From: Planctomycetota bacterium
Lineage (GTDB): Bacteria > Planctomycetota > Phycisphaerae > Phycisphaerales > Phycisphaeraceae
Length of the DNA: 64,000 nt
NCBI GenBank assembly: GCA_038749105.1
Contig: JBCDIM010000013.1
Coordinates: forward strand, 1,825 to 65,824
Direction: 5' to 3'
Under the pieces are notes generated by a model. That model made no database searches and was not told the DNA's origin. It worked only from the letters and a program-made list of their open reading frames with translations. Shown here piece by piece: positions 26,809 to 46,550 of this stretch (the stretch's first letter is position 1; every line of letters begins with the position of its first letter). The position numbers were made by a program, and so were the translations under genes.

Positions 26809-26874
26809 GCAGCCCACAAGAACGTTTTCCCCCGACCGACACCCGATACCCGACACCCCAAACCCCACTCCGCC

Positions 26875-27642: not shown

Positions 27643-27652
27643 CGCCCCGATA

Positions 27653-27687
27653 CCTACGCCCTACGCCCTAAGCCCTACGCCCTCCAA
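27653..27687 (+). repeat. Heptamer tandem array (CCTACGC CCTACGC CCTAAGC CCTACGC CCTCCAA) in the pilN-pilO spacer
   Basis: Read directly. It ends 13 nt before the pilO ATG and has the same architecture as 46567-46601. Confidence 0.85.
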
Positions 27688-27700
27688 ACCCAGGCCCACC

Positions 27701-28252: not shown

Positions 28253-28258
28253 TCCCCA

Positions 28259-28286
28259 ATTTAGCCCCGGGTCAACGACCCGGGGC
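28259..28286. repeat. TTTAGCC-hairpin element (short subfamily), copy 1
   Basis: ATTTAGCCCCGGGTCAACGACCCGGGGC. Perfect 10-bp stem 28264-28273/28277-28286 with a 3-nt loop. Same core GGTCAA(C/T)GACC as 57892-57920. Confidence 0.8.
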
Positions 28287-28341
28287 CCGCAGCGAGTCCG
28301 CTGTTCAACGACCACGAAACACTCCAACCCCGAGACTTCAA

Positions 28342-29157
28342 GTGAACCCCTCCTTCTTCACCAACCCCGAGCCGCCCAAAGACCCCCACGCCGACGAGCC
28401 CACGCCCGAGAGCGAAGCCCTGCCCGGCCTCGCCCCCGAGGCCCTGACCGACGAGGCCACGCCCGACGACGACCCCCAGTCCATGCCCCTGATGGCCGGC
28501 CTCGGCGCGATGGGCGGCAACAACGAGAACGCCGACCCCCTCGCCCTCGACGCCACCCCCAAGCCCAAGAAGCTCTCCCCCACCGTCCTCGCGCTCGTCA
28601 CCGTCCTGGGCATCTCCGCCGCGGCCCTCTTCGCCATGAAGATGACCTCCGGCCCCCAGTCCGTCGACGCCTCCACCGCCGACGCCATCGCCCAGATCGA
28701 CTCCGCCCTCCAACGCTTCAGCAACCCCGACAAGGTCGCCGCCAACGACCCGCTCCACCCCGACAACCTCGAGGCGATCTACAACACCAGCGACCTCATC
28801 GAGCAGTTCGACCTCGACCGCACCGAGAAGAACGTCCCCGTCAACGAGGTCCAGAAGAACCCGTTCCGCCTCGAAGCCCAGAAGGCCGCCGAACCTGTCG
28901 ACCCCGACGCCGCCCTCAAGGCCGCGGAGGCCGCCCGCATGAAGGCCGAAGCCGAGAAGCTCGCCGCCATCCGTAGCGAGCTCCAGACCCTGACCCTCCA
29001 ATCCGTCATGAACGGCCCTAACCCCATCGCCGTCATCAACGGTGACTTCCTCCGCGTCGGCGCCACCATCGGCTCGTTCAAGATCGCCCGCATCGACCGC
29101 CTCACCGTCACCCTCGAGGCCGACGGCACGTCCTACAAGCTCTCCGTCAAGCGCTAA
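28342..29157 (+). CDS. Hypothetical bitopic membrane protein in the PilP/GspC position
   Basis: GTG start. Acidic, disordered N-terminus, TM LSPTVLALVTVLGISAAALFAM, coiled coil, and a small C-terminal beta domain LQSVMNGPNPIAVINGDFLRVGATIGSFKIARIDRLTVTLE. Function is assigned by position and architecture only. Confidence 0.5.
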   Translation: MNPSFFTNPEPPKDPHADEPTPESEALPGLAPEALTDEATPDDDPQSMPLMAGLGAMGGNNENADPLALDATPKPKKLSPTVLALVTVLGISAAALFAMKMTSGPQSVDASTADAIAQIDSALQRFSNPDKVAANDPLHPDNLEAIYNTSDLIEQFDLDRTEKNVPVNEVQKNPFRLEAQKAAEPVDPDAALKAAEAARMKAEAEKLAAIRSELQTLTLQSVMNGPNPIAVINGDFLRVGATIGSFKIARIDRLTVTLEADGTSYKLSVKR

Positions 29158-29179
29158 TCCCACCCACCAGACCGACCCA

Positions 29180-30979
29180 GTGGACTTCGACCTCGACCAA
29201 CCCGCCGCCCCCGCAACCGCCGCCGCCCCCGCTGCGCCCGCGTCGCTCTTCGAGCCCACCAAGCCCCGGCCCCTCGGGCACGACGCCCTCGGCCAGGCCC
29301 TGGTCACCGCCAAGGCCATCACCGCCGCCCAGCTCGACGCCGCCCTGGCCGTCGCCCAACGCACGCCTGGCTCCCGGCTCATCGACCTCCTGCTCGCCGC
29401 CGGAGCCGACGCCGTCGCCGTCCAGACCGCCGCCGGCGCGTTCTTCGGCGTCCCCTTCCACGCCATCGCCGACGACCAGCTCCAGTCGCTCCACAAGCCC
29501 GTCCACCGGCTCGGCCTCGACTTCTGCGTCGACAAGCAAGTCCTGCCCCTCCGGCCCGACGGCTCCCGCTTCCTCGTCGGGATCGTCCATCCCCAGGACA
29601 TGATCACCCTCGACCACGTCCGCCACAAGCTCGGCCAGTCCATTAAGCCCGTCCTCATCACGCCCGCCGACGTCACCCGCGTCGTCGAGTCCCTTCGTGA
29701 CGACGACCCGCCGGACGAAGAGCTCGCGGTTGAAGACATCATCGCCGACATCGACGAAGACGACGTGGAAGTCGTCGAAGCGAAAGAAGAAGACCTCGAC
29801 CTCGAGAAGATGGCCGGCGAATCGCCCGTCATCCGCTACGTCAACTACCTGATCTACGACGCGGTCAAGCAGGGGGCTTCCGACATCCACATCGAGCCCC
29901 AGGAGAAGAAGCTCCAGGTCCGCTACCGCATCGACGGTGTCCTCTTCGACGCGATGAACCCGCCCGCCCACATGAAGGCGGCCATCGTCTCACGGCTCAA
30001 GATCATGGCGAACCTCGACATCTCCGAGCGACGCCTGCCCCAGGACGGCCGCATCCGGGCCATGGTCCACGGCCGAAAGCTCGACCTGCGTATGTCCACG
30101 CTCCCCATGGTCCAGGGCGAAAAGGTCGTGCTGCGTATCCTCGACACCCGCTCCATCCAGGTCGACCTCGACGACCTGGGCATGTCCGACGACATGCTCG
30201 CGATCTGGAAAAACCAGATCAAAAACCCACACGGCATTATCCTCGTCACCGGGCCCACCGGCTCGGGTAAGACGACGACGCTCTACTCGTCGCTCGGCCA
30301 GATGGACCGCGGCAAGCTCAACATCTCCACCGTCGAAGACCCCGTCGAATACCACCTCTCCGGCATCAACCAGACCCAGGTGCGCGACGACATCGGCATG
30401 TCTTTCGCCGCCGCCCTCCGCGCCCTGCTCCGGCAAGACCCCGACGTCGTCATGGTCGGCGAGATCCGCGACCAAGAGACCGCCAAGACCGCCATCCAGG
30501 CCTCGCTCACCGGCCACCTCGTCCTCTCTACCCTGCACACCAACGACGCGCCGTCCTCCGTCACCCGGCTGATCAACATCGGCGTCGAGCCGTACCTGAT
30601 CGGGTCGGCCGTCAACGCCTGCGTCGCCCAGCGTCTGGTGCGAAAGATCTGCCCGCACTGCGCCGAGCAGACCCCGCCCGACCCCAAGGTCGCCGACCAC
30701 CTCGCCATGCACGGCATCGCCCCGGACCAGGTCTACGCCGGCACCGGCTGCGACAAGTGCCGCAACACCGGCTACTCCGGCCGGATCGGGCTCTACGAGA
30801 TGCTGATCATGAACGACCAGCTCCGCGACCGCATCGCCGGCAACCCCAACGTCACCGAGTTCCGACGCATGTGCATCGAGGGCGGCATGACCACCCTCCG
30901 CGAAGACGGCTTCGCCAAGGTCGCCGCCGGCCAAACCACCGTCGAAGAAGTCCTCCGCGTCACCGAAGCCACGATCTGA
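29180..30979 (+). CDS. pilB: Type II/IV secretion ATPase (GspE/PilB family) with N-terminal T2SSE_N domain
   Basis: Start set at GTG 29180, just after the upstream stop. Walker A GPTGSGKTTT, Asp box, Walker B VVMVGEIRD, His box LVLSTLHTND, tetracysteine CPHC...CDKC. Confidence 0.9.
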   Translation: MDFDLDQPAAPATAAAPAAPASLFEPTKPRPLGHDALGQALVTAKAITAAQLDAALAVAQRTPGSRLIDLLLAAGADAVAVQTAAGAFFGVPFHAIADDQLQSLHKPVHRLGLDFCVDKQVLPLRPDGSRFLVGIVHPQDMITLDHVRHKLGQSIKPVLITPADVTRVVESLRDDDPPDEELAVEDIIADIDEDDVEVVEAKEEDLDLEKMAGESPVIRYVNYLIYDAVKQGASDIHIEPQEKKLQVRYRIDGVLFDAMNPPAHMKAAIVSRLKIMANLDISERRLPQDGRIRAMVHGRKLDLRMSTLPMVQGEKVVLRILDTRSIQVDLDDLGMSDDMLAIWKNQIKNPHGIILVTGPTGSGKTTTLYSSLGQMDRGKLNISTVEDPVEYHLSGINQTQVRDDIGMSFAAALRALLRQDPDVVMVGEIRDQETAKTAIQASLTGHLVLSTLHTNDAPSSVTRLINIGVEPYLIGSAVNACVAQRLVRKICPHCAEQTPPDPKVADHLAMHGIAPDQVYAGTGCDKCRNTGYSGRIGLYEMLIMNDQLRDRIAGNPNVTEFRRMCIEGGMTTLREDGFAKVAAGQTTVEEVLRVTEATI

Positions 30980-30990: not shown

Positions 30991-31042
30991 TTTAGCCCCC
31001 GGCTCTGCCGGGGGGCACTTGGCGTACCGGATGCCTCACGCC
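30991..31042. repeat. TTTAGCC-hairpin element (long, about 50-nt subfamily), copy 1, between convergent pilB and GT4
   Basis: TTTAGCCCCCGGCTCTGCCGGGGGGCACTTGGCGTACCGGATGCCTCACGCC aligns along its length with 45185-45237. The hairpin is GCCCCCGGC-TCTG-CCGGGGGGC. Confidence 0.8.
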
Positions 31043-32244
31043 GCCCGACGCCCGCCCCGCGTCTTCGGCTCTATCTGCGGCGTTGTCTCCACCCCAAGCA
31101 GCCGGTCATACACCGCCGCGACCTTCGCCATCCGCTGCGTAAAGCCATACTCCCGCACGACCCGCTCACGCGCCGCCGCGACCTGCGTCGCCACGTGCGA
31201 GCTCGGCCCGAGCAGACCCGATACCGCCCACGGCCAGTCCGCCTCGTGACGCCCCAGCAGCCGCCCACACCGGCCACCATCCAACGCCTCACTCACCGCA
31301 CCCACCGCCGTCGCCGCCACCGGCACTCCCACCGCCATCGCCTCCAGCAACGCGTTCGGCAGCCCCTCCGTCCGGCTGGGCAACAGCAACGCGTGCATCG
31401 CCTCTAGATACGTCTTCACGTCCCGCTGCCAGCCATGCCAGAACACCCGGCCGGTCATCCCCAACCGCTGCACCTGTTCCGTCAAACGCTTGCGCTCGGG
31501 CCCGTCACCAATCACGTGCAGCTCGACCCGCTCGTTCAGCTTCGCCAGTGTCGGCATCACTTCGATCGCCCGATCGACACCCTTCTCCACGCTCAGCCGG
31601 GCGATCACGCCGAGCACCACCGCGTCTTCCGACATCCCCAGCGCCGCCCGTGCCTCGGCCCGACTCCGCGTCCGCTGATAGACCGACGTGTCGATCGCGT
31701 TCGGCAGGGGGGTCACCCGCTCCTCGTCCATCCCCAGCCCACGGCAGTGCTCGACCAGCTCGAGGCTCACCGCGAACGCGTGGTCGTAACGCTTGATCGC
31801 GGGGTCGGCGATCTTGGCGTAGAGCCGGGTCTTCCAGGTGTCGCGTGTGAAGCCGTGCAGCGTTGTGATCAGCTTCATCGGGTGACGCCGCCGCAGCAGC
31901 AGCCCCAGCACCTCGCTCTTGTAGTCGTGGGCGTGCCAGACCTTCACCCCGTCCCGCCGACAGATCTCCAGCAGGGCGGGCAAGACCCGCCAGTCCAACG
32001 GCCCCCGATCCGCGATCGACTCGAACGGACAACCTTCTTCCAAGGCGGTGCGTTGAAGCACCGCCAGCCCTGGGTCTTCCGGGTCCGCCAGGTACGCCGC
32101 CGACAATGCGTAACGTGCCGGGTCCATCGCCTTCGGTGACCGCAAGATCGTCTTGTCCGGGCCACCCCCGGCACCGTTCACCACCCGCACATGCAACACC
32201 CGCACCCCGCGCCCGTTCTTCATCGTTTCAACAGTGTTCAACAT
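31036..32244 (-). CDS. Glycosyltransferase family 4 (GT-B)
   Basis: Start set at MLNTVETMKNGRGVRVLHV. C-terminal PSRTEGLPNALLEAMAVGVPVAAT (E-x7-E). Confidence 0.8.
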   Translation of the reverse strand: MLNTVETMKNGRGVRVLHVRVVNGAGGGPDKTILRSPKAMDPARYALSAAYLADPEDPGLAVLQRTALEEGCPFESIADRGPLDWRVLPALLEICRRDGVKVWHAHDYKSEVLGLLLRRRHPMKLITTLHGFTRDTWKTRLYAKIADPAIKRYDHAFAVSLELVEHCRGLGMDEERVTPLPNAIDTSVYQRTRSRAEARAALGMSEDAVVLGVIARLSVEKGVDRAIEVMPTLAKLNERVELHVIGDGPERKRLTEQVQRLGMTGRVFWHGWQRDVKTYLEAMHALLLPSRTEGLPNALLEAMAVGVPVAATAVGAVSEALDGGRCGRLLGRHEADWPWAVSGLLGPSSHVATQVAAARERVVREYGFTQRMAKVAAVYDRLLGVETTPQIEPKTRGGRRAA

Positions 32245-32261
32245 TTCCCGTTCCTTTCTTT

Positions 32262-33074
32262 TCATTCCGGCTTGCGCAGCACCACGATCAGGTTGCTCTG
32301 CAGCCCACGCAGCCCCGGCAGCGTCGTCGCCTTGATCATCAACATCTCGGGGACCACCCAACGCCCCAGCGTCCGCGTCTCCGGCGACGTCGGCACCCCG
32401 GCCAGCGCATCCATGACCAGGCCCGCCCGCTTCGCCACTCGACGCAACCGCCGCGTGCTATTCATCCGGTAGTAGGCGGGGTACACGTCCTCCGCCGCCC
32501 GCCCCTCCAACCAGCCCGCCATCCGACTCGCTAGCCGATCCGGCACCACACTCGCCGCCGCCGTCAGCGGGTACCACCGGTTGGGCGTGTGGATCAGCAC
32601 CCGACCACCCGGCCGCAGCACACGCGCCACCTCCGCCATCGCCCGCCGCGGACGACGCAGGTGCTCCGCCACCATGTTCATTGTCACAAGGTCCACACTC
32701 GCGTCCATCACGGGCAGCCGCGTGGCATCGCCCAACCGCAGATCGATCCCCGAAGTGTTTTCTTCTAAAGCCGATACATCCGGGTCCACCCCGATCACAT
32801 AGCCGGCTCGTTCCACCAACGCGTGCTGTCGCGCTTCGCCGCCCCGCAGCCAGCCCGGCGTCAGCCGACGCCCACAGCCCAGGTCCAGCCAGTCATCGCC
32901 CTCCCCGAGCACACCGTCCAGTACGTCGAAGTAGGCGTACTGCGAGTTCATTAAACCCGGCAACAGCCGACGTCGCATCGCCCAGTAGCAGCGGTCATCG
33001 ACGGGTGGCACAACGGGCGTCGCCACCAACGGGCTCGTAGCAGGGGACGCGGTCACAGCATGAACCCCGGGCAT
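32262..33074 (-). CDS. Class I SAM-dependent methyltransferase
   Basis: WLDLGCGRR (motif I), VDLVTMNMVAEHL, LRPGGRVLIHTPN. The ATG at 33074 overlaps the end of the upstream rSAM gene; ATG 32978 is an alternative start. Confidence 0.75.
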   Translation of the reverse strand: MPGVHAVTASPATSPLVATPVVPPVDDRCYWAMRRRLLPGLMNSQYAYFDVLDGVLGEGDDWLDLGCGRRLTPGWLRGGEARQHALVERAGYVIGVDPDVSALEENTSGIDLRLGDATRLPVMDASVDLVTMNMVAEHLRRPRRAMAEVARVLRPGGRVLIHTPNRWYPLTAAASVVPDRLASRMAGWLEGRAAEDVYPAYYRMNSTRRLRRVAKRAGLVMDALAGVPTSPETRTLGRWVVPEMLMIKATTLPGLRGLQSNLIVVLRKPE

Positions 33075-34324
33075 TCGGCACACGGGTTGTTTTCCGCCTG
33101 CTCGTCGGTGATCCGCTTCTTGAAGCTCCGCCGGGCCATCCGGTATTTCTCACCATTCCAGACCTTGCCGAAAGGGCGGTCCAGGGCGGATCCCATGTCC
33201 AGCTCGTGCTCGAACGACCCGCAGCAGACCACGACCTCACCGTCCCAGTTGATCACGCTCTGCCGCCAAGGCCAGGCACAGTTGTGCATCTTGCTCCCAT
33301 TGAATTCTGGTCCCGGATGCGCTCCCGTATCGCGGATCGATTGATAGTTCGACAACACGTAATCCGGGTTCTTGGGGAGCCACTCTTCGAGGTGGTCTTT
33401 GGTCTTTTTCTGAAGGAGGTCGTCGGCAAGCCCGAGCGGCTGGAGCTTCTTATCACGATCGAGGAACCGTAGGTTCATCGAAGCCTGCGAGAAGATCGGC
33501 CGGCAGTCCAGTGACTCCGCCAGTTCGCGGAATACCTCGATCTCGTGCTCGTTGTGCCGTGTCACGACAAAGTTCAGCTGGATCACCGGCGTTGCCGACT
33601 GCAATCGTTGCCGGGTCTCCACGATGTGCTTAACCTTCGCCAGCGTGTCTTCGTAGCTCTTGCCCGGCTGATAGATCGCGAAGGTCTCCTGGCTCGCCCC
33701 GTGCAGCGAGCAGGTCAGCATGTCCAGACCCGACTCGATCAGCTTGGTCGCGTCGTCCTTCCCTTCGACCCCGCCGTCTTTGGTCTTCCGCGGCTCGATC
33801 CGGAACGCGTGCAGGTTGGATGAGATGTAGGTCCAGACGCCGCTGCGGTGCGAGTGGTTGATCATCCGGTAGATATCGTTGTGCACCAGCGGGTCGCCCC
33901 ACATCGACAGGTCCAGCTCGAACAGGTGGCGTTTGACCTGCTTGAACAGCTTTTCGAACGACGCGAAATCCATGCGGCCCTTGCGTCGCCCTTTGAGTCC
34001 CTGGCCGGTCGGGCAGAGCTGGCAGCGGGTGTTGCAGATGTTGGTCGGCTCGATCTTCATCGCATATGGCCGACCGATCACGCGTTCCCGCTTGAGCAGG
34101 AACTCCACGTTGATCAGGGCCATGTTGGCGAGTTTGTAGGCCGTGAGGTACCGGCGGTTCCGCCAGGCCCAGAAGACCCCCCGGGCCAGGAAATCGACCG
34201 CGGCGGTCATTCGTTGCAGCGGAGCCCTCAGGTCGGGTTTGGCCTTCCAGCGCCCGGTCAGGGCGGTGGCCTGCGCCAGCCGGCGGTCAAGCGTCGAGCT
34301 CAGTGTGGTCGCGATTGCGGTCAT
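33053..34324 (-). CDS. Radical SAM enzyme with C-terminal SPASM/twitch-type cysteine cluster
   Basis: IEPTNICNTRCQLCPTG (CxxxCxxC). C-terminal CAWPWRQSVINWDGEVVVCCGSFE ... NPCAECPG. The start ATG overlaps the stop of the upstream ligase gene (ATGA at 34321-34324). GC is visibly lower than in the neighbours. Confidence 0.8.
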   Translation of the reverse strand: MTAIATTLSSTLDRRLAQATALTGRWKAKPDLRAPLQRMTAAVDFLARGVFWAWRNRRYLTAYKLANMALINVEFLLKRERVIGRPYAMKIEPTNICNTRCQLCPTGQGLKGRRKGRMDFASFEKLFKQVKRHLFELDLSMWGDPLVHNDIYRMINHSHRSGVWTYISSNLHAFRIEPRKTKDGGVEGKDDATKLIESGLDMLTCSLHGASQETFAIYQPGKSYEDTLAKVKHIVETRQRLQSATPVIQLNFVVTRHNEHEIEVFRELAESLDCRPIFSQASMNLRFLDRDKKLQPLGLADDLLQKKTKDHLEEWLPKNPDYVLSNYQSIRDTGAHPGPEFNGSKMHNCAWPWRQSVINWDGEVVVCCGSFEHELDMGSALDRPFGKVWNGEKYRMARRSFKKRITDEQAENNPCAECPGFML

Positions 34325-35724
34325 ACCCAAGCCCCCACCCGACCGCGGACACCCGGCTCCGGCTCCGGCTCGGCTTCCGTCTCGGCCTCCGGCGCATCCT
34401 CGTCTTCTTTCAGGCCCTGCTCTGACTCGCGCCGCATCAGCACCGGAGCCAGCCCGCCCAGGGCCATCAGCATCCAGGGCAGTTCCACAGCTTCGGCCGA
34501 CAGGAACAGCGCCGCCACCATAAAGCACAGCAGGCTCGCCTGGAGCGCGAGGCATAGCCGGGCCCGGTCGCCCCAGGCCGCTGCCTCCGGATCACTGGTC
34601 GAAATCAGGGGCGGATCACCCCGCGCGGGCGTGCCGTGCAGCCGCTCGGCCTCGAAGAGGCACGTCTTGCGAGCACGCCCGAACCCGTAGAACGCCAGCC
34701 CGATCGCCAGCACATAGGCGAGCGCCGCGGGGATCCCCGAGTCGGCCGCAAGCTGCAGGTACTGGTTATGGATCGTGCGGTTCGCCATGTCCGCCCCGAA
34801 GTTGTACGACAGCCGGTTCGAGTTCCGAACACCCCGGCCCAGCAGCGGCTCGTCCCAGGCGATCCGCCAGGCTGCGCCCCACGCGTCGAACCGCGACTGG
34901 GCCGACTCGTCCTCCTGGAAGTTCTTCGTCGACATGAACCGGTCGCGGATCTCCGGCCCCGCCATCACCGCCACCGCCAGCGAAAGCGCCGCTAGCCCCA
35001 CCAGCGCCTGCTTCCTGGGCCGGTGGTGCACCAGCAGCCAGATCAACGCCACCGACAACGCCACCATCGCCCCCCGCGAGTACGTCATCATCACCGCGTG
35101 CATCATCAGCAGCCCGAGGAACACCGCGAACACCCGCTTGACCATCACCATCCGGCCCGCCTGCATCAGCCCGAACACATACGCAAACGGCACGCCCATC
35201 GCGATGAACGCGCCTGCCCCGTTGTTGTCCAGCCCCCCGAACCCGTGATGGAACACATCCAGCCGACCGCCCTCGAAGAAGTACATCGCGTTGATCGAAT
35301 ACGCGTGATACCCGATGCACAGCAGCACCATCCCACCGACCGCCCAGAGGTGCCAGGGCTTGCTGATGATCAAGCTCGCCAGGAAGAACACCAGCAGCAC
35401 CTTCCCGTACTCCATCGCCCAGGCCTGGGCCAGGTACGGGTCGTCCGCAGTCACCACGCTCATGGTCATGAATGCTGTGTAGGCCAGCACACAGAGCAGC
35501 ACCGCCCCGAGCCGGGCCTGCCGCCACACCTTGCTGAAGTGCAGCATCACCGACCCCAGCAGCGCGAACGCCGCGATCAGTGACCAACGCAGCTCAGGCC
35601 CGGTGTTCAACGACCAGTGCCAGATGTGCTGCGGGCGCAGTGTCGCCAACCCGTAATACAGCAGCAGCGGCCAGAAAGGCGAGATCAGCCCGCCCAACGC
35701 CCCCACACCAATGGCTACCGTCAT
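34321..35724 (-). CDS. O-antigen ligase-like (Wzy_C domain) polytopic membrane protein
   Basis: More than 10 TM segments. MMTYSRGAMVALSVALIWLLV resembles the Wzy_C core, followed by a large loop. Start set at MTVAIGVG (ATG 35724); the ORF continues to 35856 through lower-GC sequence. Confidence 0.7.
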   Translation of the reverse strand: MTVAIGVGALGGLISPFWPLLLYYGLATLRPQHIWHWSLNTGPELRWSLIAAFALLGSVMLHFSKVWRQARLGAVLLCVLAYTAFMTMSVVTADDPYLAQAWAMEYGKVLLVFFLASLIISKPWHLWAVGGMVLLCIGYHAYSINAMYFFEGGRLDVFHHGFGGLDNNGAGAFIAMGVPFAYVFGLMQAGRMVMVKRVFAVFLGLLMMHAVMMTYSRGAMVALSVALIWLLVHHRPRKQALVGLAALSLAVAVMAGPEIRDRFMSTKNFQEDESAQSRFDAWGAAWRIAWDEPLLGRGVRNSNRLSYNFGADMANRTIHNQYLQLAADSGIPAALAYVLAIGLAFYGFGRARKTCLFEAERLHGTPARGDPPLISTSDPEAAAWGDRARLCLALQASLLCFMVAALFLSAEAVELPWMLMALGGLAPVLMRRESEQGLKEDEDAPEAETEAEPEPEPGVRGRVGAWV

Positions 35725-35884
35725 AAACAGGAAGTGCTTCACAAGAAAAGACTGGAAGACGAGGAAGTTCAACGTCGGGTCGTCCGTGACATCGGGTACG
35801 CGCGGAAAACCCCCCGGTCTATGTCGGCCCCCAACCCAAACCGCCTCCCCGATCACCCCCAGGCCCCCCGGTTATCGGCCCCTC

Positions 35885-37333
35885 ATGCACACACCGACCC
35901 CCGCCTCCAACGGCCAGTCCGTCCCCCAACCCGATACACCCTCAATGGCCGAGCTGCTCCGACCACACCCATCCAGACGCCGGCTCAGGCTCCCGCTGAT
36001 CTGCGTGGCCGTATTCGTGCTCGCGTTTGCTGTCCGCGTTGCCATGGCTTCCGCGTTCGTCGGACTGGGTGCCCCGCCCGACGCCAACGCGAACATCGAT
36101 CAGGTCGACTTCGAGATTATCGCCTGGCACCTCGCCCAAGGCCACGGCTTCACCGTCGATGGCTCCACCCCCACCGCCCGTCGCGCCCTCGGGGCCCCGC
36201 TGATCTTTGCGCCCGTCTACCTGATCACCGGGCAACGCGACTTCGGGATCCTCCGCCTCTGGATCATCGCCCTCTCCGCCGCGACGTGCGTGCTGACCGC
36301 CCTGATCGCCCGACGCCTCGCCCCACCCCGCTACGCCACGCTTGCCGCCGCCCTGGCGGGCCTGGGCCTCGCCCTCTACCCCGGGCACGCCTACTACGCC
36401 ATGCACATGCTCAGCGAGCCCCCCTTCGCCGCGTGCCTCGCCCTGGCGACCTACCTCTCGCTCCTCGCTTGGCAGCACCCCGCAGCCCGCTCCCGGCAGA
36501 CCTGGATCCTCACCGCCGCCGCTGGCACCGCTTGGGCACTGCTCATCCTCACCAAGCCGCAGTTCATCCTGCTGCTCCCGCTCGCCGCCGCCGCGCTGGT
36601 CACCCCGCCGACCGTCCGCTGGCTCCGCCGCCGACCAGTCCGCCTCGTGCAGACGCCCGGCCCGCAGCTGGCCTTCGCGCTGCTCCTCACCACACTGCTC
36701 GTCGTGCCCTGGGGTGTCCGCAACCACCAACAGCTCGGCGTCACCGGGCTCTCCTCCATCGTCGGGCTCGGGCTCTGGGGCGGCAACAACGAGCTGATCC
36801 TTGACGACCCGATCTGGCGCGGCCGATGGCTCCGCATCAGCGAGGTCGAACGCCGGCTCAACCAGCCACTGCCCGACGGCGAAGCCGCCGCCAACCGCGA
36901 GGCCAAGCAGCGCGGCCTCGCCTTCATGAGAGCCCACGCCGCCGAGATGCCCGCCCTCACCCTAACCAAGCTGCAACGCCTCGTCACGCCCTTCCCCCGC
37001 ACCACCAACACCGCCGCCCGCTGGTCCGAAGCGCTCGCCTGGATCACCCTCGCCCCGCTGACCCTCCTCGGCCTCATCCACCTGCTCCGGCACCAACGCC
37101 ACACCCTGGCGTTACCCCTGCTCCTCGCCCCGGTCGTCGTCACCGTCGGTACCGCGGCCGTCTTCTTCGGCATCGTCCGCTACCGCAACGCCCTGGCCCC
37201 CACGCTCCTGGTCCTGGGCGCCCTCGGCCTCGCCTCGCTCCTACACGCCCTCCGCAGCCGCTACGCCAAACCTAACCACACTGCTTACCCGCTGCGCACC
37301 GAAGAGCCACTCCCGACGCGCCGGGCCGCGTGA
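35885..37333 (+). CDS. GT-C fold glycosyltransferase (ArnT / PMT_2, family 39/83-like)
   Basis: Polytopic. N-terminal TM followed by DQVDFEIIAWHLAQGHGF (the D-x-x-Y/F ... G-x-G loop typical of ArnT/PMT-like enzymes). Alternative start 35945. Confidence 0.6.
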   Translation: MHTPTPASNGQSVPQPDTPSMAELLRPHPSRRRLRLPLICVAVFVLAFAVRVAMASAFVGLGAPPDANANIDQVDFEIIAWHLAQGHGFTVDGSTPTARRALGAPLIFAPVYLITGQRDFGILRLWIIALSAATCVLTALIARRLAPPRYATLAAALAGLGLALYPGHAYYAMHMLSEPPFAACLALATYLSLLAWQHPAARSRQTWILTAAAGTAWALLILTKPQFILLLPLAAAALVTPPTVRWLRRRPVRLVQTPGPQLAFALLLTTLLVVPWGVRNHQQLGVTGLSSIVGLGLWGGNNELILDDPIWRGRWLRISEVERRLNQPLPDGEAAANREAKQRGLAFMRAHAAEMPALTLTKLQRLVTPFPRTTNTAARWSEALAWITLAPLTLLGLIHLLRHQRHTLALPLLLAPVVVTVGTAAVFFGIVRYRNALAPTLLVLGALGLASLLHALRSRYAKPNHTAYPLRTEEPLPTRRAA

Positions 37334-39370: not shown

Positions 39371-40270
39371 TCAGGGTGGTGGCGGCTGCCAGTCGGGGTC
39401 GCCTATCGTCGCCGCTAGATTGTTCCACCGCGTCATATCCGACAACGCAACGAAATCAAGATAGGTCGCCGAGCCATCGAGGTGAGACACAATCGCGCTC
39501 TCCTGGCAGCGGAAATCAACCGAGCCCGTATCTTCAGGGACCCCGTCCGGATCGTACGCCGTACCCTGCCACCGGTTCGAAGCGAGTTGATCACTCGGGG
39601 CGGTCACTCGGTAGTTCCCCGGCACCACGTCTTCGCCCGCCGCATCAAGCCCGAACGCCGAAGCGAAGACCAGCAGCCGACTGGGGTCCACCGCCTCTTC
39701 AAACCGGCGGACCACGCCGGGGTTGTTCTCGGTGTTACCCCCCAAGACGAAATAGCCTCCAACGTTATTGGTGTTCATCCCGAAGCTCGGGTTAATGCTG
39801 ACGCGGTACATCCAGACACCGTACTCCGGGTCGCCAGCCCCACCGGTGAAGTCTGTGCTAAACGCAGCCCCGCCTGGCGGGGTAGCGTCCGCATCGGCCC
39901 GCTCGTTGATTAGCACCGACCCTTCCAACGCGTAATCCAGGTAGTTCACCAGCCGCCACGGATAACGCCAAGCTGAGACCCCAAAGAACGGCTCACCGTT
40001 CGGTGCGTAGCCCGGCTCGTCCACCGCATAGCCCTTGATAATCAACCCGTCCTCGTCCAATGACCTGATCGTCACCGCTTGGAGGAGCGTCCGCGCAGCC
40101 GCCAATTCGGCCGCACACGCCGCCGCCTGCCGGCTGGCACCCAACACCGGCAGCAGAATACCAATCAGCAGCGCAATGATGCTGATCACCACCAACAACT
40201 CCACCAAGGTAAAACCACGCACTGCCCGATACTTCACGCCGTGTTCCTTTGCAAGGAGCATCCCGAACAA
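39371..40270 (-). CDS. Prepilin-type N-terminal cleavage/methylation domain protein (DUF1559 / HX9DG-type pseudopilin-like)
   Basis: RGFTLVELLVVISIIALLIGILLPVLG prepilin signal. The C-terminal ...VSHLDGSATYLD resembles the DG end of the HX9DG motif. 24-nt gap to the upstream PEP-CTERM gene. Confidence 0.8.
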   Translation of the reverse strand: MFGMLLAKEHGVKYRAVRGFTLVELLVVISIIALLIGILLPVLGASRQAAACAAELAAARTLLQAVTIRSLDEDGLIIKGYAVDEPGYAPNGEPFFGVSAWRYPWRLVNYLDYALEGSVLINERADADATPPGGAAFSTDFTGGAGDPEYGVWMYRVSINPSFGMNTNNVGGYFVLGGNTENNPGVVRRFEEAVDPSRLLVFASAFGLDAAGEDVVPGNYRVTAPSDQLASNRWQGTAYDPDGVPEDTGSVDFRCQESAIVSHLDGSATYLDFVALSDMTRWNNLAATIGDPDWQPPPP

Positions 40271-40294
40271 TCGCCCGCAGCGTAATCCAATGCC

Positions 40295-41074
40295 TTAGAT
40301 CTTGGCGGCTGCACGCCGACGCCGGCCACACACCACAGCCCCGCTCAAGCCAAACAGCAGCAACGCGTTTGGTTCGGGGATTACCAATGCGAAGGTATCG
40401 CTCTGATCAAGTTGGAGAGCAAGGATCGTACTACTTGTTCCCGCCGTCTCGAAACGGACATCCACCTCACTGATCGGCCCAAGGCCACGCAAGTCCCACT
40501 GATACCGCAGCGTCCCGACCGGCACCGGCCCAAAGCCCGAATCGAAAGGGGGGGCCACCGAAAGATCAGACGCTACATAACCGATATTGGTGGTCTCATC
40601 CCCGTTGATGTAGAGCGTCGGATCATCCTCCAAGTACACGCCAAACTCGGAGCCCGATCCGATCTCGATCTGAAAAATCAGCGTTTCGATGTCAGTCACA
40701 GGCGTGGTGTCGAAGACCTTGAATACGCCGCTGCCGTTCGGCGACGTATAGATGCTGATCCCCGCCGGGTAGCCATTGCCTGAGACCTTGTCGAAGAGGG
40801 CGTCACCCGTGGGGTCATCGTCGCTGGAGCTAAAGGTATTGAACGTGAGTAGCGACTCGATCGGTTCCGGCCACAGAGCCGAACCAGGAAAATTGGGGAA
40901 GATCGGATCGGCCGTCGCGACCTGCGGATTCGTCCGCGTCAGGTTGTCCCACGCATCGAAGTCCGCACTACCCGGAAGACTGACCGAGGTGACGACGGCA
41001 ACCGCACTTTGGGTCCACAGCAACGCAGCCAAGACCGAAACACTGGCGTATCGCGATTGAGTCAAAGCAAGCAT
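40295..41074 (-). CDS. PEP-CTERM sorting-domain protein (paralog 1)
   Basis: Signal peptide SVLAALLWTQSAVA. C-terminus VIPEPNALLLFGLSGAVVCGRRRR (PEP motif, TM, Arg cluster). Shares WDNL..TNPQV and SSDDDPTGDA.FDK.SG.GYP.G.SIY blocks with 41266..42066. Confidence 0.85.
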   Translation of the reverse strand: MLALTQSRYASVSVLAALLWTQSAVAVVTSVSLPGSADFDAWDNLTRTNPQVATADPIFPNFPGSALWPEPIESLLTFNTFSSSDDDPTGDALFDKVSGNGYPAGISIYTSPNGSGVFKVFDTTPVTDIETLIFQIEIGSGSEFGVYLEDDPTLYINGDETTNIGYVASDLSVAPPFDSGFGPVPVGTLRYQWDLRGLGPISEVDVRFETAGTSSTILALQLDQSDTFALVIPEPNALLLFGLSGAVVCGRRRRAAAKI

Positions 41075-41265
41075 CCTAAGCCTTACCGAATCACCGGATG
41101 TTTGTCCGGAATGCCCAAACCATCAACCTTGTGGCTAACCGAGCGACAGTGTGACAGTCATTCGGCGAGGGTGTGGTCACCTCGATCCAGAAAACCGCCC
41201 ACGTCCCCCCCAAAAACACTCCGACGCCGGTCAAGGAGAGGGAGTGATCGGATCGCGACAGCGGC

Positions 41266-42066
41266 TCAGCCTTCCCGCCGACGACGTCGAGCCGTAAGCA
41301 TGACACCGCCCAGCCCGAGCAGGGCCAAGGAGGCCGGCTCAGGAATCACTTGGGACAACGGGGCAAACGTATCGCCCTGGTCAAGCTGCAATTGACGGAT
41401 ACTGGTACTCGACCCACCCATGGTGAAATCGATGTCGAACGAGCCGATGGGATCGCTGATTCCGGAGACGTCCCAACTAAAAGCGATTGTGTTGACCGTC
41501 AGGGGGCCAAACTCTCCAGCGGGGTCAAAAATAGACTCAAGAATAGAAACCTCGGTCGGAAGGATCGTGGGAGTGTCACCGTTTACGCCAAGCACCGGAT
41601 CGCCAGCCAGAAAAACACCGCCATCACCACTGCCTAACTGGATCTGAAAGACCACGATTTCAAGATCGTCGACGGGGGTGGCGTCGGAGATACGATGGAC
41701 TGCGGGGATGTGCGGCGGAGCGGGCGCCGGAAACTGTGGCCCGCCATAGATCGACTGGCCGGACGGATAGCCCTGCCCCGAAAGCTTGTCGAACTGGGCG
41801 TCTCCGGTGGGGTCATCGTCAGACGTGTCAAATGTGCCCTGGGTCAAAACGGACTCGATCGGGACAGCCCAGGGCTGCAAACCGGGGAAGCCGCCGAACG
41901 CCCCAGGAGCCACCAGCACCTGCGGGTTAGTCGCCGACAGGTTGTCCCACCCGTCATTCTGCGTGTCACCCGACAGAAAAACCTCCACGGGCTCGGCCTG
42001 TGCCGAACCCGCAACAACAATTCCAGCAGCAGCAATCGCTGCCAACATGGTGGACCGACTCGTCAT
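41266..42066 (-). CDS. PEP-CTERM sorting-domain protein (paralog 2)
   Basis: Start set at MTSRSTMLAAIAAAGIVVAGSAQA with GGAGG 8 nt upstream. C-terminus VIPEPASLALLGLGGVMLTARRRRR. Confidence 0.85.
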   Translation of the reverse strand: MTSRSTMLAAIAAAGIVVAGSAQAEPVEVFLSGDTQNDGWDNLSATNPQVLVAPGAFGGFPGLQPWAVPIESVLTQGTFDTSDDDPTGDAQFDKLSGQGYPSGQSIYGGPQFPAPAPPHIPAVHRISDATPVDDLEIVVFQIQLGSGDGGVFLAGDPVLGVNGDTPTILPTEVSILESIFDPAGEFGPLTVNTIAFSWDVSGISDPIGSFDIDFTMGGSSTSIRQLQLDQGDTFAPLSQVIPEPASLALLGLGGVMLTARRRRREG

Positions 42067-42214
42067 TTCAAAACCTCCACAAAAGGGGCGGGCTGGACAG
42101 CCCAAAGGGCGGGATCCGCTGTGGCAGCAGGCCACTCGGACTCAAGCGATTCGAGCGGTTGTGCTTAAGAACAAAAGCGCTCCTTAGCAGCTGAGACTCT
42201 GTCGCTGGTCACAG

Positions 42215-42243
42215 ATACTAGAAAGACTGCGACACGTTTGCAA
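42215..42243 (-). promoter_or_regulatory. Candidate sigma70-type promoter for the PEP-CTERM/pseudopilin gene string
   Basis: The minus strand reads TTGCAA (42243-42238), a 17-nt spacer, then TAGTAT (42220-42215), within an AT-richer spacer. This implies a 5' UTR of about 140 nt before ATG 42066. Confidence 0.4.
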
Positions 42244-43179: not shown

Positions 43180-43887
43180 ATGCTCGCCGCCCTCCGCCAA
43201 CGCCAACCCGGCCAGCCCCTCTACCGCATCCTCTGGTGGCACCTCTACCACGGGCTCTGCTTCCTCGCGTTCGTCCCGCTCTACCGCTTCCGCGCCTACC
43301 ACGTCCACCGCATCCCCCGCACCGGGCCCATCCTCTTCGTCGCCAACCACCAGTCCTACTACGACCCGATCATCGTCGGGCTCGGCGCCCACTTCCGCCA
43401 GTTCTTCGCCATGGCCCGGGCCTCCCTCTGGAAGTCCAGAGCCTTCCGCTGGATGACCGTGCCCCTCAACCCCATCCCCGTCGAACAGGGCACCGGCGAC
43501 ATCAAGGCCATCAAACGCTGCGTCCAAGCCCTCAAGGACGGCCAGGCCCTCCTCGTCTTCCCCGAAGGCGCCCGCACCCCCGACGGCAGCATCCAGACCT
43601 TCGAACCCGGCGTCATGCTCCTGATCAAGCGCGCCAAGCCCACCGTCATCCCCGTCGCCCTCGACGGTGCCTATGACGCCTGGCCCATCCACGAATCCTC
43701 CCCCAAAGCCACCGGCCGCATCGGCTGCATCTACGGCCACCCCATCCCCGCCCAGACCCTGCTCGACATGGAGGCCGCCGACGCCTGCGAACACCTCCGC
43801 ACCGAGGTCGCCGGGCTCCAGGCTGAACTGCGCACCCACCTCCACCCCAAGCCCCGTCGGGGCCTCGCCCGCGCCGCTTGGCAGTAG
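43180..43887 (+). CDS. plsC: 1-acyl-sn-glycerol-3-phosphate acyltransferase
   Basis: FVANHQSYYDP (HX4D) and VFPEGARTPDG motifs. Confidence 0.85.
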   Translation: MLAALRQRQPGQPLYRILWWHLYHGLCFLAFVPLYRFRAYHVHRIPRTGPILFVANHQSYYDPIIVGLGAHFRQFFAMARASLWKSRAFRWMTVPLNPIPVEQGTGDIKAIKRCVQALKDGQALLVFPEGARTPDGSIQTFEPGVMLLIKRAKPTVIPVALDGAYDAWPIHESSPKATGRIGCIYGHPIPAQTLLDMEAADACEHLRTEVAGLQAELRTHLHPKPRRGLARAAWQ

Positions 43888-43957
43888 CCCCATCTCCGGC
43901 CCCGCCGCCCAGCCCGCATGCTGTCGCCGAGACGCCGACTCTGCCGATGTCTCTTCC

Positions 43958-45178
43958 ATGCGCATCGCCCTCGACGCCCGCGTCCTCGCCGCCCCTCAGC
44001 GGCGCGGCATCGCCAAGAGCCTCTTCCGGCTCTACCAGGCCCTCGCCCTGGCGCGACCGGACTGGCAGGTCGTCGCCTACCACCGCGGCCTCCACCGCCT
44101 CGATCTGACGATGCCCGACAACGTCGTCGAGCAGCACGTCATCGAGATCCCCGGCGACCGCTTCGACGCCTGGCCCCGGCTCCGCCTCCCCGCCGCCGTC
44201 CGGAACGCCGACGTCGACCTCCTGCACTGCCCCGCCAACGCCGGCCCGCGCTGGATGCCCAAGCCCACCGTCGTCACCGTCCACGACCTGATCCCGCTGG
44301 ACATGCCCGAGGGCCGGGACGAGACCGAGGTCGACCGCTTCGAGGTCGGCGTCCGCACCGCCTGCCGCCGCGCCGCCGCTGTCGTCTGTCCCTCCGCTTA
44401 TACCCGTGAGCGCCTGATCGCCGAGCACGGCCTCAACCCCGCCCGCGGGTTCGTCGTCCCCTGGGGCGTCACCACTTCACCCGCTGACCCCACCGACCCG
44501 CACACCCTCACCACGCTCAACCGCTACCAGCTCGAGCACCCCTACTTCCTCCACTTCGGGGCCGCCGAGCCCCGCAAGAACACCCGCGGCCTCATCGAGG
44601 CCTACGCCCTGGTCCCGCCGGTCTACCGCCAACGCGTGCCCCTGCTCATCCTGGGCCTCGACGAGCGCGCCAAGGCCGAGATGACCCGCCTCGCCGACTC
44701 CCTCGGCGTGCCCACCACCGCCAGCCCGACACAGCCCGTCCCGACCCGCACCCCCCGCGGCCTCATCCGGTTCGCCGGCTTCGTCCCCGAGGACGACCTC
44801 GGCCCGCTCCTCGCCGGTGCCCTCAGCCTCGCCTACCCCAGCTACGCCGAGGGCTTCGGCCTGCCCATCCTCGAAGCCTTCGCCGCCGGTATCCCCGTAC
44901 TCGCCTCCGATCGCTCGGCCATCCCCGAGATCGCACACGACGCCGCCGAGGTCGTCCACCCCGACGATCGTGTCGCCATCACCAAAGCCCTCACCCGGCT
45001 CGCCAAGGACCCCCTGCGCCGCCGAGAGCTTGTCCACCTCGGCCGACAACGCGTCACCGCCTTCTCGTGGAAGCACGCCGCCGAGGCCTTCGCCGCCGCC
45101 CTCGAACACGCCGCCGTCCAGGCCCGCCGTCCCAGCCCCCGCGTCCTGGCCCTCCAGCAGCGACGCCCCGCCGCCTGA
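43958..45178 (+). CDS. Glycosyltransferase family 4 (GT-B)
   Basis: Start set at MRIALDARVL. PSYAEGFGLPILEAFAAGIPVLASD (E-x7-E). Confidence 0.8.
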   Translation: MRIALDARVLAAPQRRGIAKSLFRLYQALALARPDWQVVAYHRGLHRLDLTMPDNVVEQHVIEIPGDRFDAWPRLRLPAAVRNADVDLLHCPANAGPRWMPKPTVVTVHDLIPLDMPEGRDETEVDRFEVGVRTACRRAAAVVCPSAYTRERLIAEHGLNPARGFVVPWGVTTSPADPTDPHTLTTLNRYQLEHPYFLHFGAAEPRKNTRGLIEAYALVPPVYRQRVPLLILGLDERAKAEMTRLADSLGVPTTASPTQPVPTRTPRGLIRFAGFVPEDDLGPLLAGALSLAYPSYAEGFGLPILEAFAAGIPVLASDRSAIPEIAHDAAEVVHPDDRVAITKALTRLAKDPLRRRELVHLGRQRVTAFSWKHAAEAFAAALEHAAVQARRPSPRVLALQQRRPAA

Positions 45179-45184
45179 CCACCC

Positions 45185-45237
45185 TTTAGCCCCGGGCTCT
45201 GCCCAGGGGCACGCGGCGTGCCCGATGCCTCACCCGC
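45185..45237. repeat. TTTAGCC-hairpin element (long subfamily), copy 2, between two co-directional GT genes
   Basis: TTTAGCCCCGGGCTCTGCCCAGGGGCACGCGGCGTGCCCGATGCCTCACCCGC aligns with 30991-31042. Confidence 0.8.
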
Positions 45238-45257
45238 TACCTGCACGCTCCCGCCCC

Positions 45258-46550
45258 ATGTGCGACGTCCTCTTCATCAGCGAACGCCCGCTCTGGCCCC
45301 TCGACCAGGGCTTCCGCGTCCACGGCATCGCCCTCGCCCGTGCACTCGCCGACCTCGGCCAATCCGTCCGCCTGTCTTCCCTACAACCGACTCAACACTC
45401 CGAGACGCCCGACGACATCCGGGCCATGCTCACCCCCTGGCCCGAGCCCACCGCCGACGACATCGCCCATACCAAGCAAGCCTGGCAGCAGCAGGGCGGT
45501 CCCCTCACCCGAGCCCTCCGCCGCAAAGCCGCCGCCCACCAAGCCCTCGCCCCCCGCGACACCGCCGGCCTGCTCCCCCTCATCCACCAACTCCAACCCA
45601 CTCACCTCATCGCCCTCGGCCCCCACGGCCCCGTCTTCCTCCAATCCCTCGCCTCCACCCCACACACCCCGACCCGCACCTGGTACGCCGCCGACGAGCC
45701 CGCCTCCTTCGCCCTCTCCTGCCTCCGCCGCGAACCAATGACCCGCTGGCCCCACCGCCTCCGCCAGGCCGCCGTCTTCGCCACCCTCCAACACACATCA
45801 TCCCCCGCGATCCAAACCGTCATCGGGGTCTCACCCACCGACACCCGCCGGCTCAAACGCCTCACCCGCGCCCCCCACGCCCTGCTCCTCCCCAACGGTG
45901 TCGACCCCACCCGCTTCCCCTTCCGCCCCCAACCGCCCCAAACCGGATACGCCCAGTCCATCGCCTTCTGGGGCAACCTCGCCTTCGAGCCCAACGCCGA
46001 CGCCGCCCGATTCCTGCTCAAGCGCCTCTGGCCCACGCTCATCAAGAACCACCCCAACGCCAAGCTCTCCCTCATCGGCCCCGGCCTCCCCAACAACCTC
46101 CGCCCACTGACCCAACAGCCCGGCGTCACCGTCACCGGCCACGTCCGCGACCTGACCCAGCTCCTCCACCAGCACGCCCTCGCTGTCATGCCCTTCCGCC
46201 TAGGCCTCGGCATCAAGAACAAGCTGCTCGAAGCCGCCGCCCTCGGGCTCCCCCTCGTCGCCTCGCCGCATGCCGTCCGAGAACTCCGCCACTCCACCGA
46301 TTCGCCCCCGTGGCTCACCGCCCAATCCCCGCGTCAGTGGATCGACGCCATCACCCACCTCTGGGCCCACCCCGAGGAGGCCAGCACCCTCGCCCACGCC
46401 GCCCACGCCTGGGTCCGCACCCACCACGACTGGACCACCCAAGCCCAAACGCTCCTCGACCACCTCAACCGGCTCACCCCACCCGCCCGCCAACCCGATG
46501 ACACCCACAGCGAACACGCCAGTCTGCAACCACCCGCCCGTGCCGCCTGA
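45258..46550 (+). CDS. GT-B glycosyltransferase resembling the PEP-CTERM/EpsH1-associated sugar transferase family
   Basis: Start set at MCDVLFISERPLWPLDQGFRVH. FWGNLAFEPNADAARFLLKRLWPTL...LSLIGPG...GVTVTGHVRDL...MPFRLGLGIKNKLLEAAALGLPLVAS matches my recollection of that family (TIGR03087, from memory). Confidence 0.65.
   Translation: MCDVLFISERPLWPLDQGFRVHGIALARALADLGQSVRLSSLQPTQHSETPDDIRAMLTPWPEPTADDIAHTKQAWQQQGGPLTRALRRKAAAHQALAPRDTAGLLPLIHQLQPTHLIALGPHGPVFLQSLASTPHTPTRTWYAADEPASFALSCLRREPMTRWPHRLRQAAVFATLQHTSSPAIQTVIGVSPTDTRRLKRLTRAPHALLLPNGVDPTRFPFRPQPPQTGYAQSIAFWGNLAFEPNADAARFLLKRLWPTLIKNHPNAKLSLIGPGLPNNLRPLTQQPGVTVTGHVRDLTQLLHQHALAVMPFRLGLGIKNKLLEAAALGLPLVASPHAVRELRHSTDSPPWLTAQSPRQWIDAITHLWAHPEEASTLAHAAHAWVRTHHDWTTQAQTLLDHLNRLTPPARQPDDTHSEHASLQPPARAA

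Follow-up and report, generated by a model that had tools for sequence, protein, structure and literature searches.

A planctomycete PEP-CTERM and prepilin-type gene trio: recurrent pairing of two envelope protein families and a possible link to heme uptake

Modular minor pilins and the minor pseudopilins of type II secretion systems (T2SS; GspH/I/J/K) combine a class III signal and a Glu5 residue with a bulky head grafted onto a pilin stalk. PEP-CTERM proteins and planctomycete-type prepilin-like proteins are among the largest uncharacterised groups of envelope proteins in environmental bacteria, with almost no functions assigned to either. In a published account of PEP-CTERM proteins, more than 65% of the genes formed single-gene operons and prepilin neighbours went unmentioned, and the Proteobacterial genes carried a sigma-54/PrsR site (Haft et al. 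2006; PMC1569441). The literature that we searched holds no paper linking PEP-CTERM proteins with pseudopilins, DUF1559 or heme uptake in such a sense; a study of Akkermansia and bile acids lists both PEP-CTERM and prepilin proteins, as unrelated genes. Here we describe a locus at which the two classes meet, in a 64,000-nt stretch of DNA from a Planctomycetota bacterium of the Phycisphaeraceae (GCA_038749105.1, contig JBCDIM010000013.1; hereafter the window), where two PEP-CTERM paralogs and a prepilin-type gene stand in a row. We propose that the trio exemplifies an envelope module, conserved in PVC bacteria (Planctomycetota and Verrucomicrobiota) and so far undescribed, which has two components, probably serving iron- or heme-linked capture, a reading that we regard as evenly balanced between right and wrong.

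Recurrent pairing of two envelope protein families

An earlier reading of the window from its letters and open reading frames (ORFs) alone, the sequence-only reading, had reported three minus-strand genes, two of them PEP-CTERM paralogs, in an apparent operon whose fixed pairing of sorting classes would suggest a surface structure using both. Its observations are largely correct, apart from a DUF1559 label for the third gene and the strength ascribed to a promoter. All three genes were recovered as consecutive minus-strand ORFs spanning 39371-42135:

39371-40270, minus strand: pilin-like gene, in its longest reading from TTG 40270
40295-41074, minus strand: PEP-CTERM paralog 1, 259 aa, the copy kept beside the pilin gene in relatives
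41266-42066, minus strand: PEP-CTERM paralog 2, 266 aa; the longest ORF extends to 42135

The spacer from paralog 2 to paralog 1 measures 191 nt as that reading gave it, the peptide motifs that it quoted are all present, and the lower GC content that it noted is borne out (58-62% in the trio vs 65-72% in the flanks), with GC at third codon positions (GC3) of 0.66-0.74 vs 0.85-0.93 in neighbours.

Related loci, designated here by L numbers, were reached by scanning a genome collection with a 19-sequence alignment of the ectodomain family of the paralogs, and further loci came from look-ups of pilin homologs and of distant ectodomain homologs; hidden Markov models (HMMs) of both alignments (ectodomain, A1; pilin, A3) were run on all ORFs of these loci. 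The recurrent synteny whose absence elsewhere would have counted against the sequence-only reading was found: members of the same ectodomain and pilin families share one same-strand cluster at 13 loci in at least 10 genomic contexts, drawn from Planctomycetota and Verrucomicrobiota, with unrelated flanks and varied gene orders. The full-length pilin members at these loci match the A3 profile at E 1e-60 to 1e-105. The order is PEP, pilin in the window, L001, L003, L008, L015/16, L017/18 and L019 (where another, divergent pair of PEP and pilin genes also occurs); DUF6607, PEP, 'mid', pilin in L020 (Luteolibacter yonseiensis), L021 (Haloferula chungangensis) and L108/109; beta-sandwich, pilin, PEP in L105 and L106; and pilin, beta-sandwich, PEP in L107. 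Only L001 shares flanks with the window, with flanking proteins 72-93% identical, the PEP protein 70% and the pilin 66%. Every other locus lies in a different neighbourhood, such as TPR, proB and KDO-transferase genes in L003, flagellar genes in L008, or the interval between serA and recG in L015. Across the first 22 ORF-scanned sources (L001-L021 and the window), full-length matches to the pilin family always adjoin a PEP-family gene, and the partners diverge together, with ectodomain identity correlated to pilin-head identity in nine pairs (r=0.75, Mantel p=4e-4).

That these genes lie together merely through shared descent or by chance, with nothing to connect them in function, seems barely credible to us. 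Prepilin-type genes are very abundant in PVC genomes, with 68 DUF1559 paralogs in Planctopirus limnophila (PMC10632474), and the closest relative, L001, is simply collinear with the window. We nevertheless reject synteny by chance or descent alone because the flanks differ at all loci except L001; the occurrence at 13 loci from two phyla, in at least 10 contexts and in differing gene orders, the correlated divergence of the partners, and a partner that always belongs to the same pilin family and never to DUF1559 also argue against it. Of the interpretation that came with the sequence-only reading, a recurrent and non-random pairing therefore stands, while the partner is not a DUF1559 protein and a single transcript is unproven.

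Pairing of this kind could instead reflect secretion and not joint function at the surface, if the pilin were a substrate-specific pseudopilin, the tip or piston of a T2SS-like apparatus, that takes its PEP-CTERM partner through the outer membrane. To our knowledge, no mechanism has been established for the passage of PEP-CTERM proteins across that membrane, and one-to-one pairing with co-diverging partners would suit such an adaptor. A metagenome scan with the pilin alignment mostly matched the generic N-terminal motif, yielding full-length members only in L024 and L025, and was reused as a background set; a PEP-CTERM gene ends within 350 nt upstream on the same strand in 6 of the 52 generic prepilin-type genes with enough upstream sequence (L024, L034, L045, L046, L060 and L097), so the PEP-CTERM-then-prepilin arrangement is broader than the two families studied here, which also fits. 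So does the pairing of the pilin family with 'mid', a second and unrelated secreted family that bears a PEP-CTERM tail in L022 and a dockerin tail in L023. We nonetheless consider a sorting adaptor quite unlikely: a third PEP-CTERM gene of the window stands without a pilin partner, several members of the family lack a nearby pilin gene, the predominance of single-gene PEP-CTERM operons (>65%; PMC1569441) points the other way, and heme-gene neighbourhoods and a shared operator (see below) would be left unexplained.

Several other components accompany the pair. In Verrucomicrobiota it forms part of a four-gene cassette of DUF6607 (PF20311), PEP, 'mid' and pilin genes (L020, 5045-8571; L021, 5059-8521; L108, 1-3079), followed in L020 and L108 by FAD/Trp-halogenase-like genes. 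The 'mid' proteins are 351-376 aa long with no Pfam match, and DUF6607 is not mentioned in the literature searched. A protein of 74-81 aa directly follows the pilin gene in L019 (6868-7092) and L022 (5829-6074); the two copies are 52% identical and share the motif RLYxCQHxTxHLNxG, and the L019 copy, the sole copy scanned, has no family match. Extra secreted beta-sandwich proteins with weak similarity to the PEP family lie beside the module in L105 (3209-4195), L106 (3198-4193), L107 (3807-4925) and L013 (6474-7931), those of L105, L106 and L107 ending in a C-terminal DPDADGLPNLLEYALG motif instead of a PEP-CTERM anchor. The PEP/pilin pair of L022 is followed by Kelch and PQQ propeller genes (6117-8495), and the window has a Kelch-repeat beta-propeller gene at 61715-62956 on the plus strand; this likeness may be coincidental.

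The ectodomain and pilin families

Paralogs 1 and 2 are 47% identical over 244 residues (E 2e-65), consistent with the paralogy claimed for them, and the HMM check that the sequence-only reading had proposed places both above the curated PEP-CTERM cut-offs (PF07589, 22.9 and 22.6 bits vs 20.7; TIGR02595, 18.5 and 27.4 bits vs 16). Their C-terminal tails read IPEPNALLLFGLSGAVVCGRRRR and IPEPASLALLGLGGVMLTARRRRR, and by inspection the N-terminal signal of paralog 2 is MTSRSTMLAAIAAAGIVVAGSAQA, ahead of EP, and that of paralog 1 ends in SVSVLAALLWTQSAVA, ahead of VV. Paralog 2 is thus built of a Sec-type signal (..AGSAQA before EP), a jelly-roll ectodomain, IPEP, a transmembrane helix and RRRRR. 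Among full-length curated PEP-CTERM subfamily models (NCBIfam), all fall far under their cut-offs and the anchor region alone matches.

The shared ectodomain had been left unassigned, with structure prediction suggested as a way forward. An AlphaFold2 (AF2) model of paralog 1 is confident (pLDDT 89.5, pTM 0.82) and shows an N-terminal helix followed by a jelly-roll beta-sandwich. The sequence has no match in the PDB; a Foldseek search of the PDB with the model gave only a weak, fold-class resemblance, with best E 1.5e-3 and TM-scores of 0.29-0.44, to the Eph ligand-binding domain, carbohydrate-binding modules (CBM27/29/35) and L-type lectins (VIP36/Emp46). A word-index search with paralog 1 returned 44 homologs, all from Planctomycetota or Verrucomicrobiota, and an exhaustive profile search 913 cluster representatives at E<=1e-3, of which 248 at E<=1e-30. 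The residues that are invariant or nearly so are predominantly aromatic (W42, W68, Y109, F134/Q135, W193/D194), K96 is conserved too, and an acidic insert, DDDPTGDA, is found in the clade of the window only, distant members being without it. The upstream paralogs of L001 (7040-7882) and the window (41266-42066) are only about 40% identical amid flanking proteins of 72-93%, indicating that the first paralog has either diverged very rapidly or been replaced independently.

These properties bear on the main rival reading for the window clade, which keeps the same coupled module and has it bind a glycan or exopolysaccharide, possibly aided by Ca2+, for nutrient capture or matrix attachment, with any heme role confined to distant subfamilies. 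The best structural matches (CBM27/29/35, L-type lectins, Eph ligand-binding domain), the conserved aromatics W42, W68, Y109, F134 and W193, and the clade-specific acidic loop DDDPTGDA all suit a glycan ligand, as do the glycosyltransferase, Wzy_C, PMT_2 and MltA genes that flank the trio and the absence of heme genes from the window. These structural resemblances are weak, however (E >= 1.5e-3, TM-scores 0.3-0.4), and the glycan neighbours may be incidental because flanks differ at every other locus, L001 excepted. Moreover, members of the window's own clade (L003, L005, L007, L009, L004/L010 and L001) carry a palindrome that also precedes hemP and hutW in L019. Overall, glycan binding strikes us as unlikely, if worth keeping in view.

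A role in adhesion or flocculation would make the beta-sandwich proteins part of a PEP-CTERM/exopolysaccharide matrix or floc and the pilin-like protein a minor subunit in an adhesive type IV pilus, co-regulated and not physically coupled. The tail of paralog 2 matches the flocculation protein PepA (29 bits vs a cut-off of 80), the window encodes exopolysaccharide-type genes together with pilMNO and an ATPase, and low GC3 and fast divergence are typical of surface proteins. The PepA match is limited to the anchor region, though, tight pairing holds across differing gene orders and many contexts, and a position inside heme-uptake operons suits a purely adhesive role poorly, making this explanation very unlikely in our estimation.

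The third gene carries the prepilin signal ascribed to it, with PF07963 at 30.2 bits (cut-off 21.2) and TIGR02532 at 24.6 bits (cut-off 16.3); its leader, MKYRAVRG followed by FTLVELLVVISIIALL, is a class III signal with Glu5. The AF2 model (pLDDT 92.8, pTM 0.88) consists of an N-terminal helix of 50 residues and a globular alpha/beta head of about 230 aa. No relative of the head, by structure or by sequence, was found in the PDB: the match of the profile to solved pilins is confined to the N-terminal helix, and the best Foldseek hit of the model in the PDB has E 0.64, in a search that the long helix probably dominated.

The DUF1559-type label given to this gene does not hold. At E<=1 it matches neither PF07596 (DUF1559, cut-off 23.3 bits) nor TIGR04294 (H-X9-DG, cut-off 19 bits), and nine other members of the pilin family likewise fail both models, while genuine DUF1559 proteins of L002 and L009, run as positive controls, score 166-167 and 39-43 bits, respectively. 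An hhalign comparison of the family with 26 DUF1559 sequences aligns residues 8-101 and no further, and the residues at the H-X9-DG site are FRCQESAIVSHLDG, with Cys in place of His. The best of the T2SS pseudopilin equivalogs, GspG, reaches 30 bits against a cut-off of 88.85, over residues 18-72 only. The gene belongs to a large uncurated prepilin family of at least 2889 proteins at E<=1e-3 (part of them helix-only matches), whose named members come from Phycisphaerae-type Planctomycetota and which is marked by the motifs RYPWRL, VSV-PSFGMN-GG, PSRLIVFASA and LRDMTRWN-AA-DPDW.

Transcription, a shared palindrome and heme-gene neighbours

Transcription of the trio was considered with the following elements, all read on the minus strand:

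42227-42243, minus strand: degenerate palindrome TTGCAA-acgtg-TCGCAG, agreeing with TTGAGA-N5-TCTCAA at 8/12 specified positions
42215-42220, minus strand: -10-like hexamer TAGTAT, 6 nt after the palindrome
42067-42214, minus strand: leader, about 140 nt long, in which a AGTCTCAGC block is conserved and GGAGG at 42074-42078 forms the ribosome-binding site
41212-41246, minus strand: weak hairpin CACUCC...GGAGUG with UUUUU, just past the stop codon of paralog 2; possibly a partial terminator
40238-40294, minus strand: gap between paralog 1 and the pilin gene, with AAGGA at 40245-40249 and no terminator-like site

The gap of 24 nt reported between paralog 1 and the pilin gene applies only to the TTG start at 40270. 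A likelier start is GTG 40237, which has AAGGA 7 nt upstream, gives the short leader MKYRAVRG ahead of FTLVE and yields a product identical to a 288-aa NCBI call in a metagenome-assembled genome (P0045), making the gap 57 nt. For paralog 2, ATG 42066 is preceded by GGAGG, which is kept in the nearest relative, L001.

Co-transcription of the trio, as the sequence-only reading had it, survives in part. The scanner called no terminator-like site in the 24-57-nt gap or in the 191-nt spacer, and paralog 1 and the pilin gene are likely co-transcribed, since the gap is free of terminators and the same pair is the unit conserved elsewhere. Paralog 2 is less certain. The hairpin and U5 run behind it are no better than shuffles in the window (z +0.6), but the 12-bp GC hairpin that L001 carries there is strong (z -4.2). 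Transcription may therefore continue only in part beyond paralog 2, and one transcript for all three genes is unproven.

The promoter candidate, TTGCAA-17-TAGTAT at 42243-42215, lies about 140 nt before ATG 42066 and is conserved in L001, and its position and leader stand. Its description as good does not, as 8/12 positions agree with consensus and a sigma-70 scanner called no promoter in 38.8-42.8 kb. The hexamer TTGCAA that had been taken for a -35 box is the left half of the degenerate palindrome. At the orthologous site of the collinear L001, the palindrome reads TTGAAA-atcga-TCTCAG (10/12), with TAGTAT 6 nt later as in the window; palindrome and TAGTAT stand out as conserved islands where the rest of the intergenic region has diverged, in support of a genuine promoter/operator.

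The palindrome was found through the best partial hits of a canonical Fur-box scan in other loci. Its 17-bp form, TTGAGA-N5-TCTCAA, occurs 26 times with at most 2 mismatches in 367 kb of related loci, vs about 4 in shuffles, and the majority sit 60-250 nt ahead of PEP-family genes (L001, L003, L004, L005, L007, L008, L009, L010, L012, L015, L017 and L104), often just after a -10-like hexamer. Single copies precede the pilin gene of L023, a large ORF after the PEP gene of L002, and both hemP and hutW in L019. The classical Fur-box core is TGATAAT-N-ATTATCA, from which we take the consensus of the palindrome, TGAGAAT-N-ATTCTCA, to differ at two symmetric positions.

Together with this operator-like site, heme-gene neighbourhoods are the most informative clues to function, and neither figured in the sequence-only reading. 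Six related loci (L013, L017, L019, L105, L106 and L107) lie directly beside heme genes. In L017, a HutX/ChuX-like gene follows the pilin gene by 34 nt. L019 runs hemP, PEP, pilin and then, farther on, a second PEP, pilin and a radical SAM gene whose best match by far is ChuW/HutW (350 bits vs a cut-off of 400). The PEP gene of L105, L106 and L107 is followed by genes for a HugZ/HutZ-like protein, a periplasmic binding protein (HmuT) and a FecCD permease (HmuU), with an HmuV ATPase in L105 and L106, that of L106 passing the heme ABC model NF010068 (294 vs 261 bits). In L013, the PEP gene precedes HmuTUV and then a HugZ-like gene. The heme-utilisation cluster of L019 also holds, between its two PEP/pilin pairs, a PEP-CTERM-tailed gene resembling the NF038122 metalloproteases (7187-8092; HELGHILGF).

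Elsewhere in the window, a candidate assembly machinery for prepilin-type proteins is encoded on the plus strand at 25516-30979, 8.4 kb from the trio, as judged by a Pfam scan of the ORFs:

25516-26808, plus strand: PilM
26875-27642, plus strand: PilN
27701-28252, plus strand: PilO
28342-29157, plus strand: 271-aa ORF within the cluster, no family assigned
29042-30979, plus strand: T2SSE/PilB-type ATPase with an MshEN domain

One flank of the trio (31036-37333) holds genes for a GT4 glycosyltransferase, a radical SAM/SPASM protein, a Wzy_C/O-antigen-ligase-like protein, PMT_2, an M50 protease and MltA; the other (43667-46550) holds cmk, an acyltransferase gene and two GT1 glycosyltransferase genes. 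The third PEP-CTERM gene of the window (53925-54677, minus; PF07589, 23 bits) has another ectodomain, a GC3 of 0.65 and no pilin partner, and a palindrome resembling that of the trio, TTGAAA-gtgct-TTACAA, lies about 145 nt upstream of it (54820-54836).

A number of results weigh against an iron- or heme-linked module in the window itself. The trio sits among housekeeping and glycan genes, no heme or iron genes were found among the ORFs scanned in the 64 kb, and tblastn with six heme-gene queries found no match there. The palindrome copy is degenerate, with 4/12 mismatches, and alone is not above chance; at most 3 mismatches, 3 matches occur across the window vs 9 expected, with no enrichment, and a canonical 19-bp Fur-box scan of the promoter and spacer gave nothing above shuffles. 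The strongly heme-linked members all belong to distant subfamilies (<=40% identity) without the DDDPTGDA insert, the ectodomain fold is nearer to carbohydrate-binding modules than to known hemophores, and the family has no conserved His, only the near-invariant Tyr109. As to machinery, no exosortase was found among the 30 window ORFs scanned with Pfam, and neither a prepilin peptidase nor PilC/GspF among the window ORFs scanned. Pairing has its exceptions as well: no prepilin gene occurs in the sequence available for L005, L010/L004, L012, L013 and L104, and in L002 and L009/L007 the only one is a true DUF1559 gene at a distance of 2-4 kb. Loci without a pilin gene have no conserved neighbour, except between close relatives. 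The heme or iron role of the window copy is accordingly extrapolated from relatives, because its clade has no heme genes nearby, an acidic insert of its own and a CBM-like fold.

A proposed module and its comparison with known systems

With these points in mind, the two-component module that we favour may be pictured as follows. Its first component would be one or two Sec-exported beta-sandwich proteins of about 190 aa, processed by exosortase and displayed at the cell surface, both steps being presumed because a PEP-CTERM anchor is present. The second would be a dedicated prepilin-type protein that prepilin peptidase processes and that enters, as a modular subunit of low abundance, a short type IV pilus or T2SS-like fibre, which PilMNO and ATPase machinery of the kind encoded 8.4 kb away could build. 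The surface beta-sandwich would capture a ligand, and the pilin head, as its partner on a fibre spanning the periplasm, would relay it inward. For the family as a whole, heme or another iron-bearing tetrapyrrole is the best-supported ligand class, with the module presumably under an iron-responsive, Fur-like repressor. What the analysis shows are the domain identities, the recurrent pairing, the palindrome in common and the heme-gene neighbourhoods of relatives, and functional coupling of the two proteins is supported; beyond this, they may interact physically, and their localisation and ligand would be as outlined; such an arrangement would amount to a surface structure using both sorting systems.

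A more specific version describes a new route for heme or iron tetrapyrroles in PVC bacteria, in which a PEP-CTERM beta-sandwich receptor or hemophore would hand its ligand to a pilin head that rides on a short, retractile fibre of the type IV pilus or T2SS-like kind, the fibre would deliver it to the HmuTUV transporter, and a Fur-like repressor would act at TGAGAAT-N-ATTCTCA. So complete a scheme is unlikely to be right in every part. If it were, it would provide the first known cooperation of exosortase and prepilin peptidase in one machine and the first concrete function for one branch of the planctomycete and verrucomicrobial prepilin-like paralog families. An iron or heme link by itself, if true, would show how abundant aquatic and soil bacteria obtain a limiting nutrient. 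The fixed pairing of one family from each of two large groups also offers a concrete, testable hypothesis for both, and the cassette has cultured carriers in Luteolibacter yonseiensis and Haloferula chungangensis.

Compared with described systems, the trio resembles the PEP-CTERM/exosortase system in that both paralogs have an N-terminal signal, a C-terminal PEP motif, a transmembrane helix and an Arg cluster, and differs from it in an ectodomain outside the curated subfamilies, a fixed place beside a prepilin gene and a different palindrome upstream. The pilin has the prepilin leader, long helix, head of about 250 aa and C-terminal ...DG... strand of the DUF1559/H-X9-DG families, with which profile-profile alignment extends over the first ~95 residues, past the helix; unlike them, it has the head motifs RYPWRL, PSFGMN and LRDMTRWN, and Cys replaces His. 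Like the modular minor pilins, it probably occurs as a fibre subunit of low abundance that contributes a binding function, although it matches the models of T2SS pseudopilins over the N-terminal ~60 residues only and has no minor-pilin gene set alongside.

Among heme-uptake loci, the module of six relatives takes the usual position of the outer receptor or hemophore, upstream of or within the Hmu/Hut genes, and the operator-like palindrome is common to the module, hemP and hutW, whereas the module resembles none of HasA, NEAT, HmuY and the TonB-dependent receptors in sequence or fold. The Verru_Chthon cassettes (TIGR02596-TIGR02600) are likewise verrucomicrobial multi-gene cassettes with prepilin-type proteins, and TIGR02596 is the only curated model to align past the helix, in one family member (L024, residues 7-179). 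The scores lie well under the cut-off of 70 bits, however (window protein, 22; L024, 34), and the DUF6607/PEP/'mid'/pilin cassette has other components. Set beside all of these systems, the module is undescribed, yet it is built from known kinds of parts.

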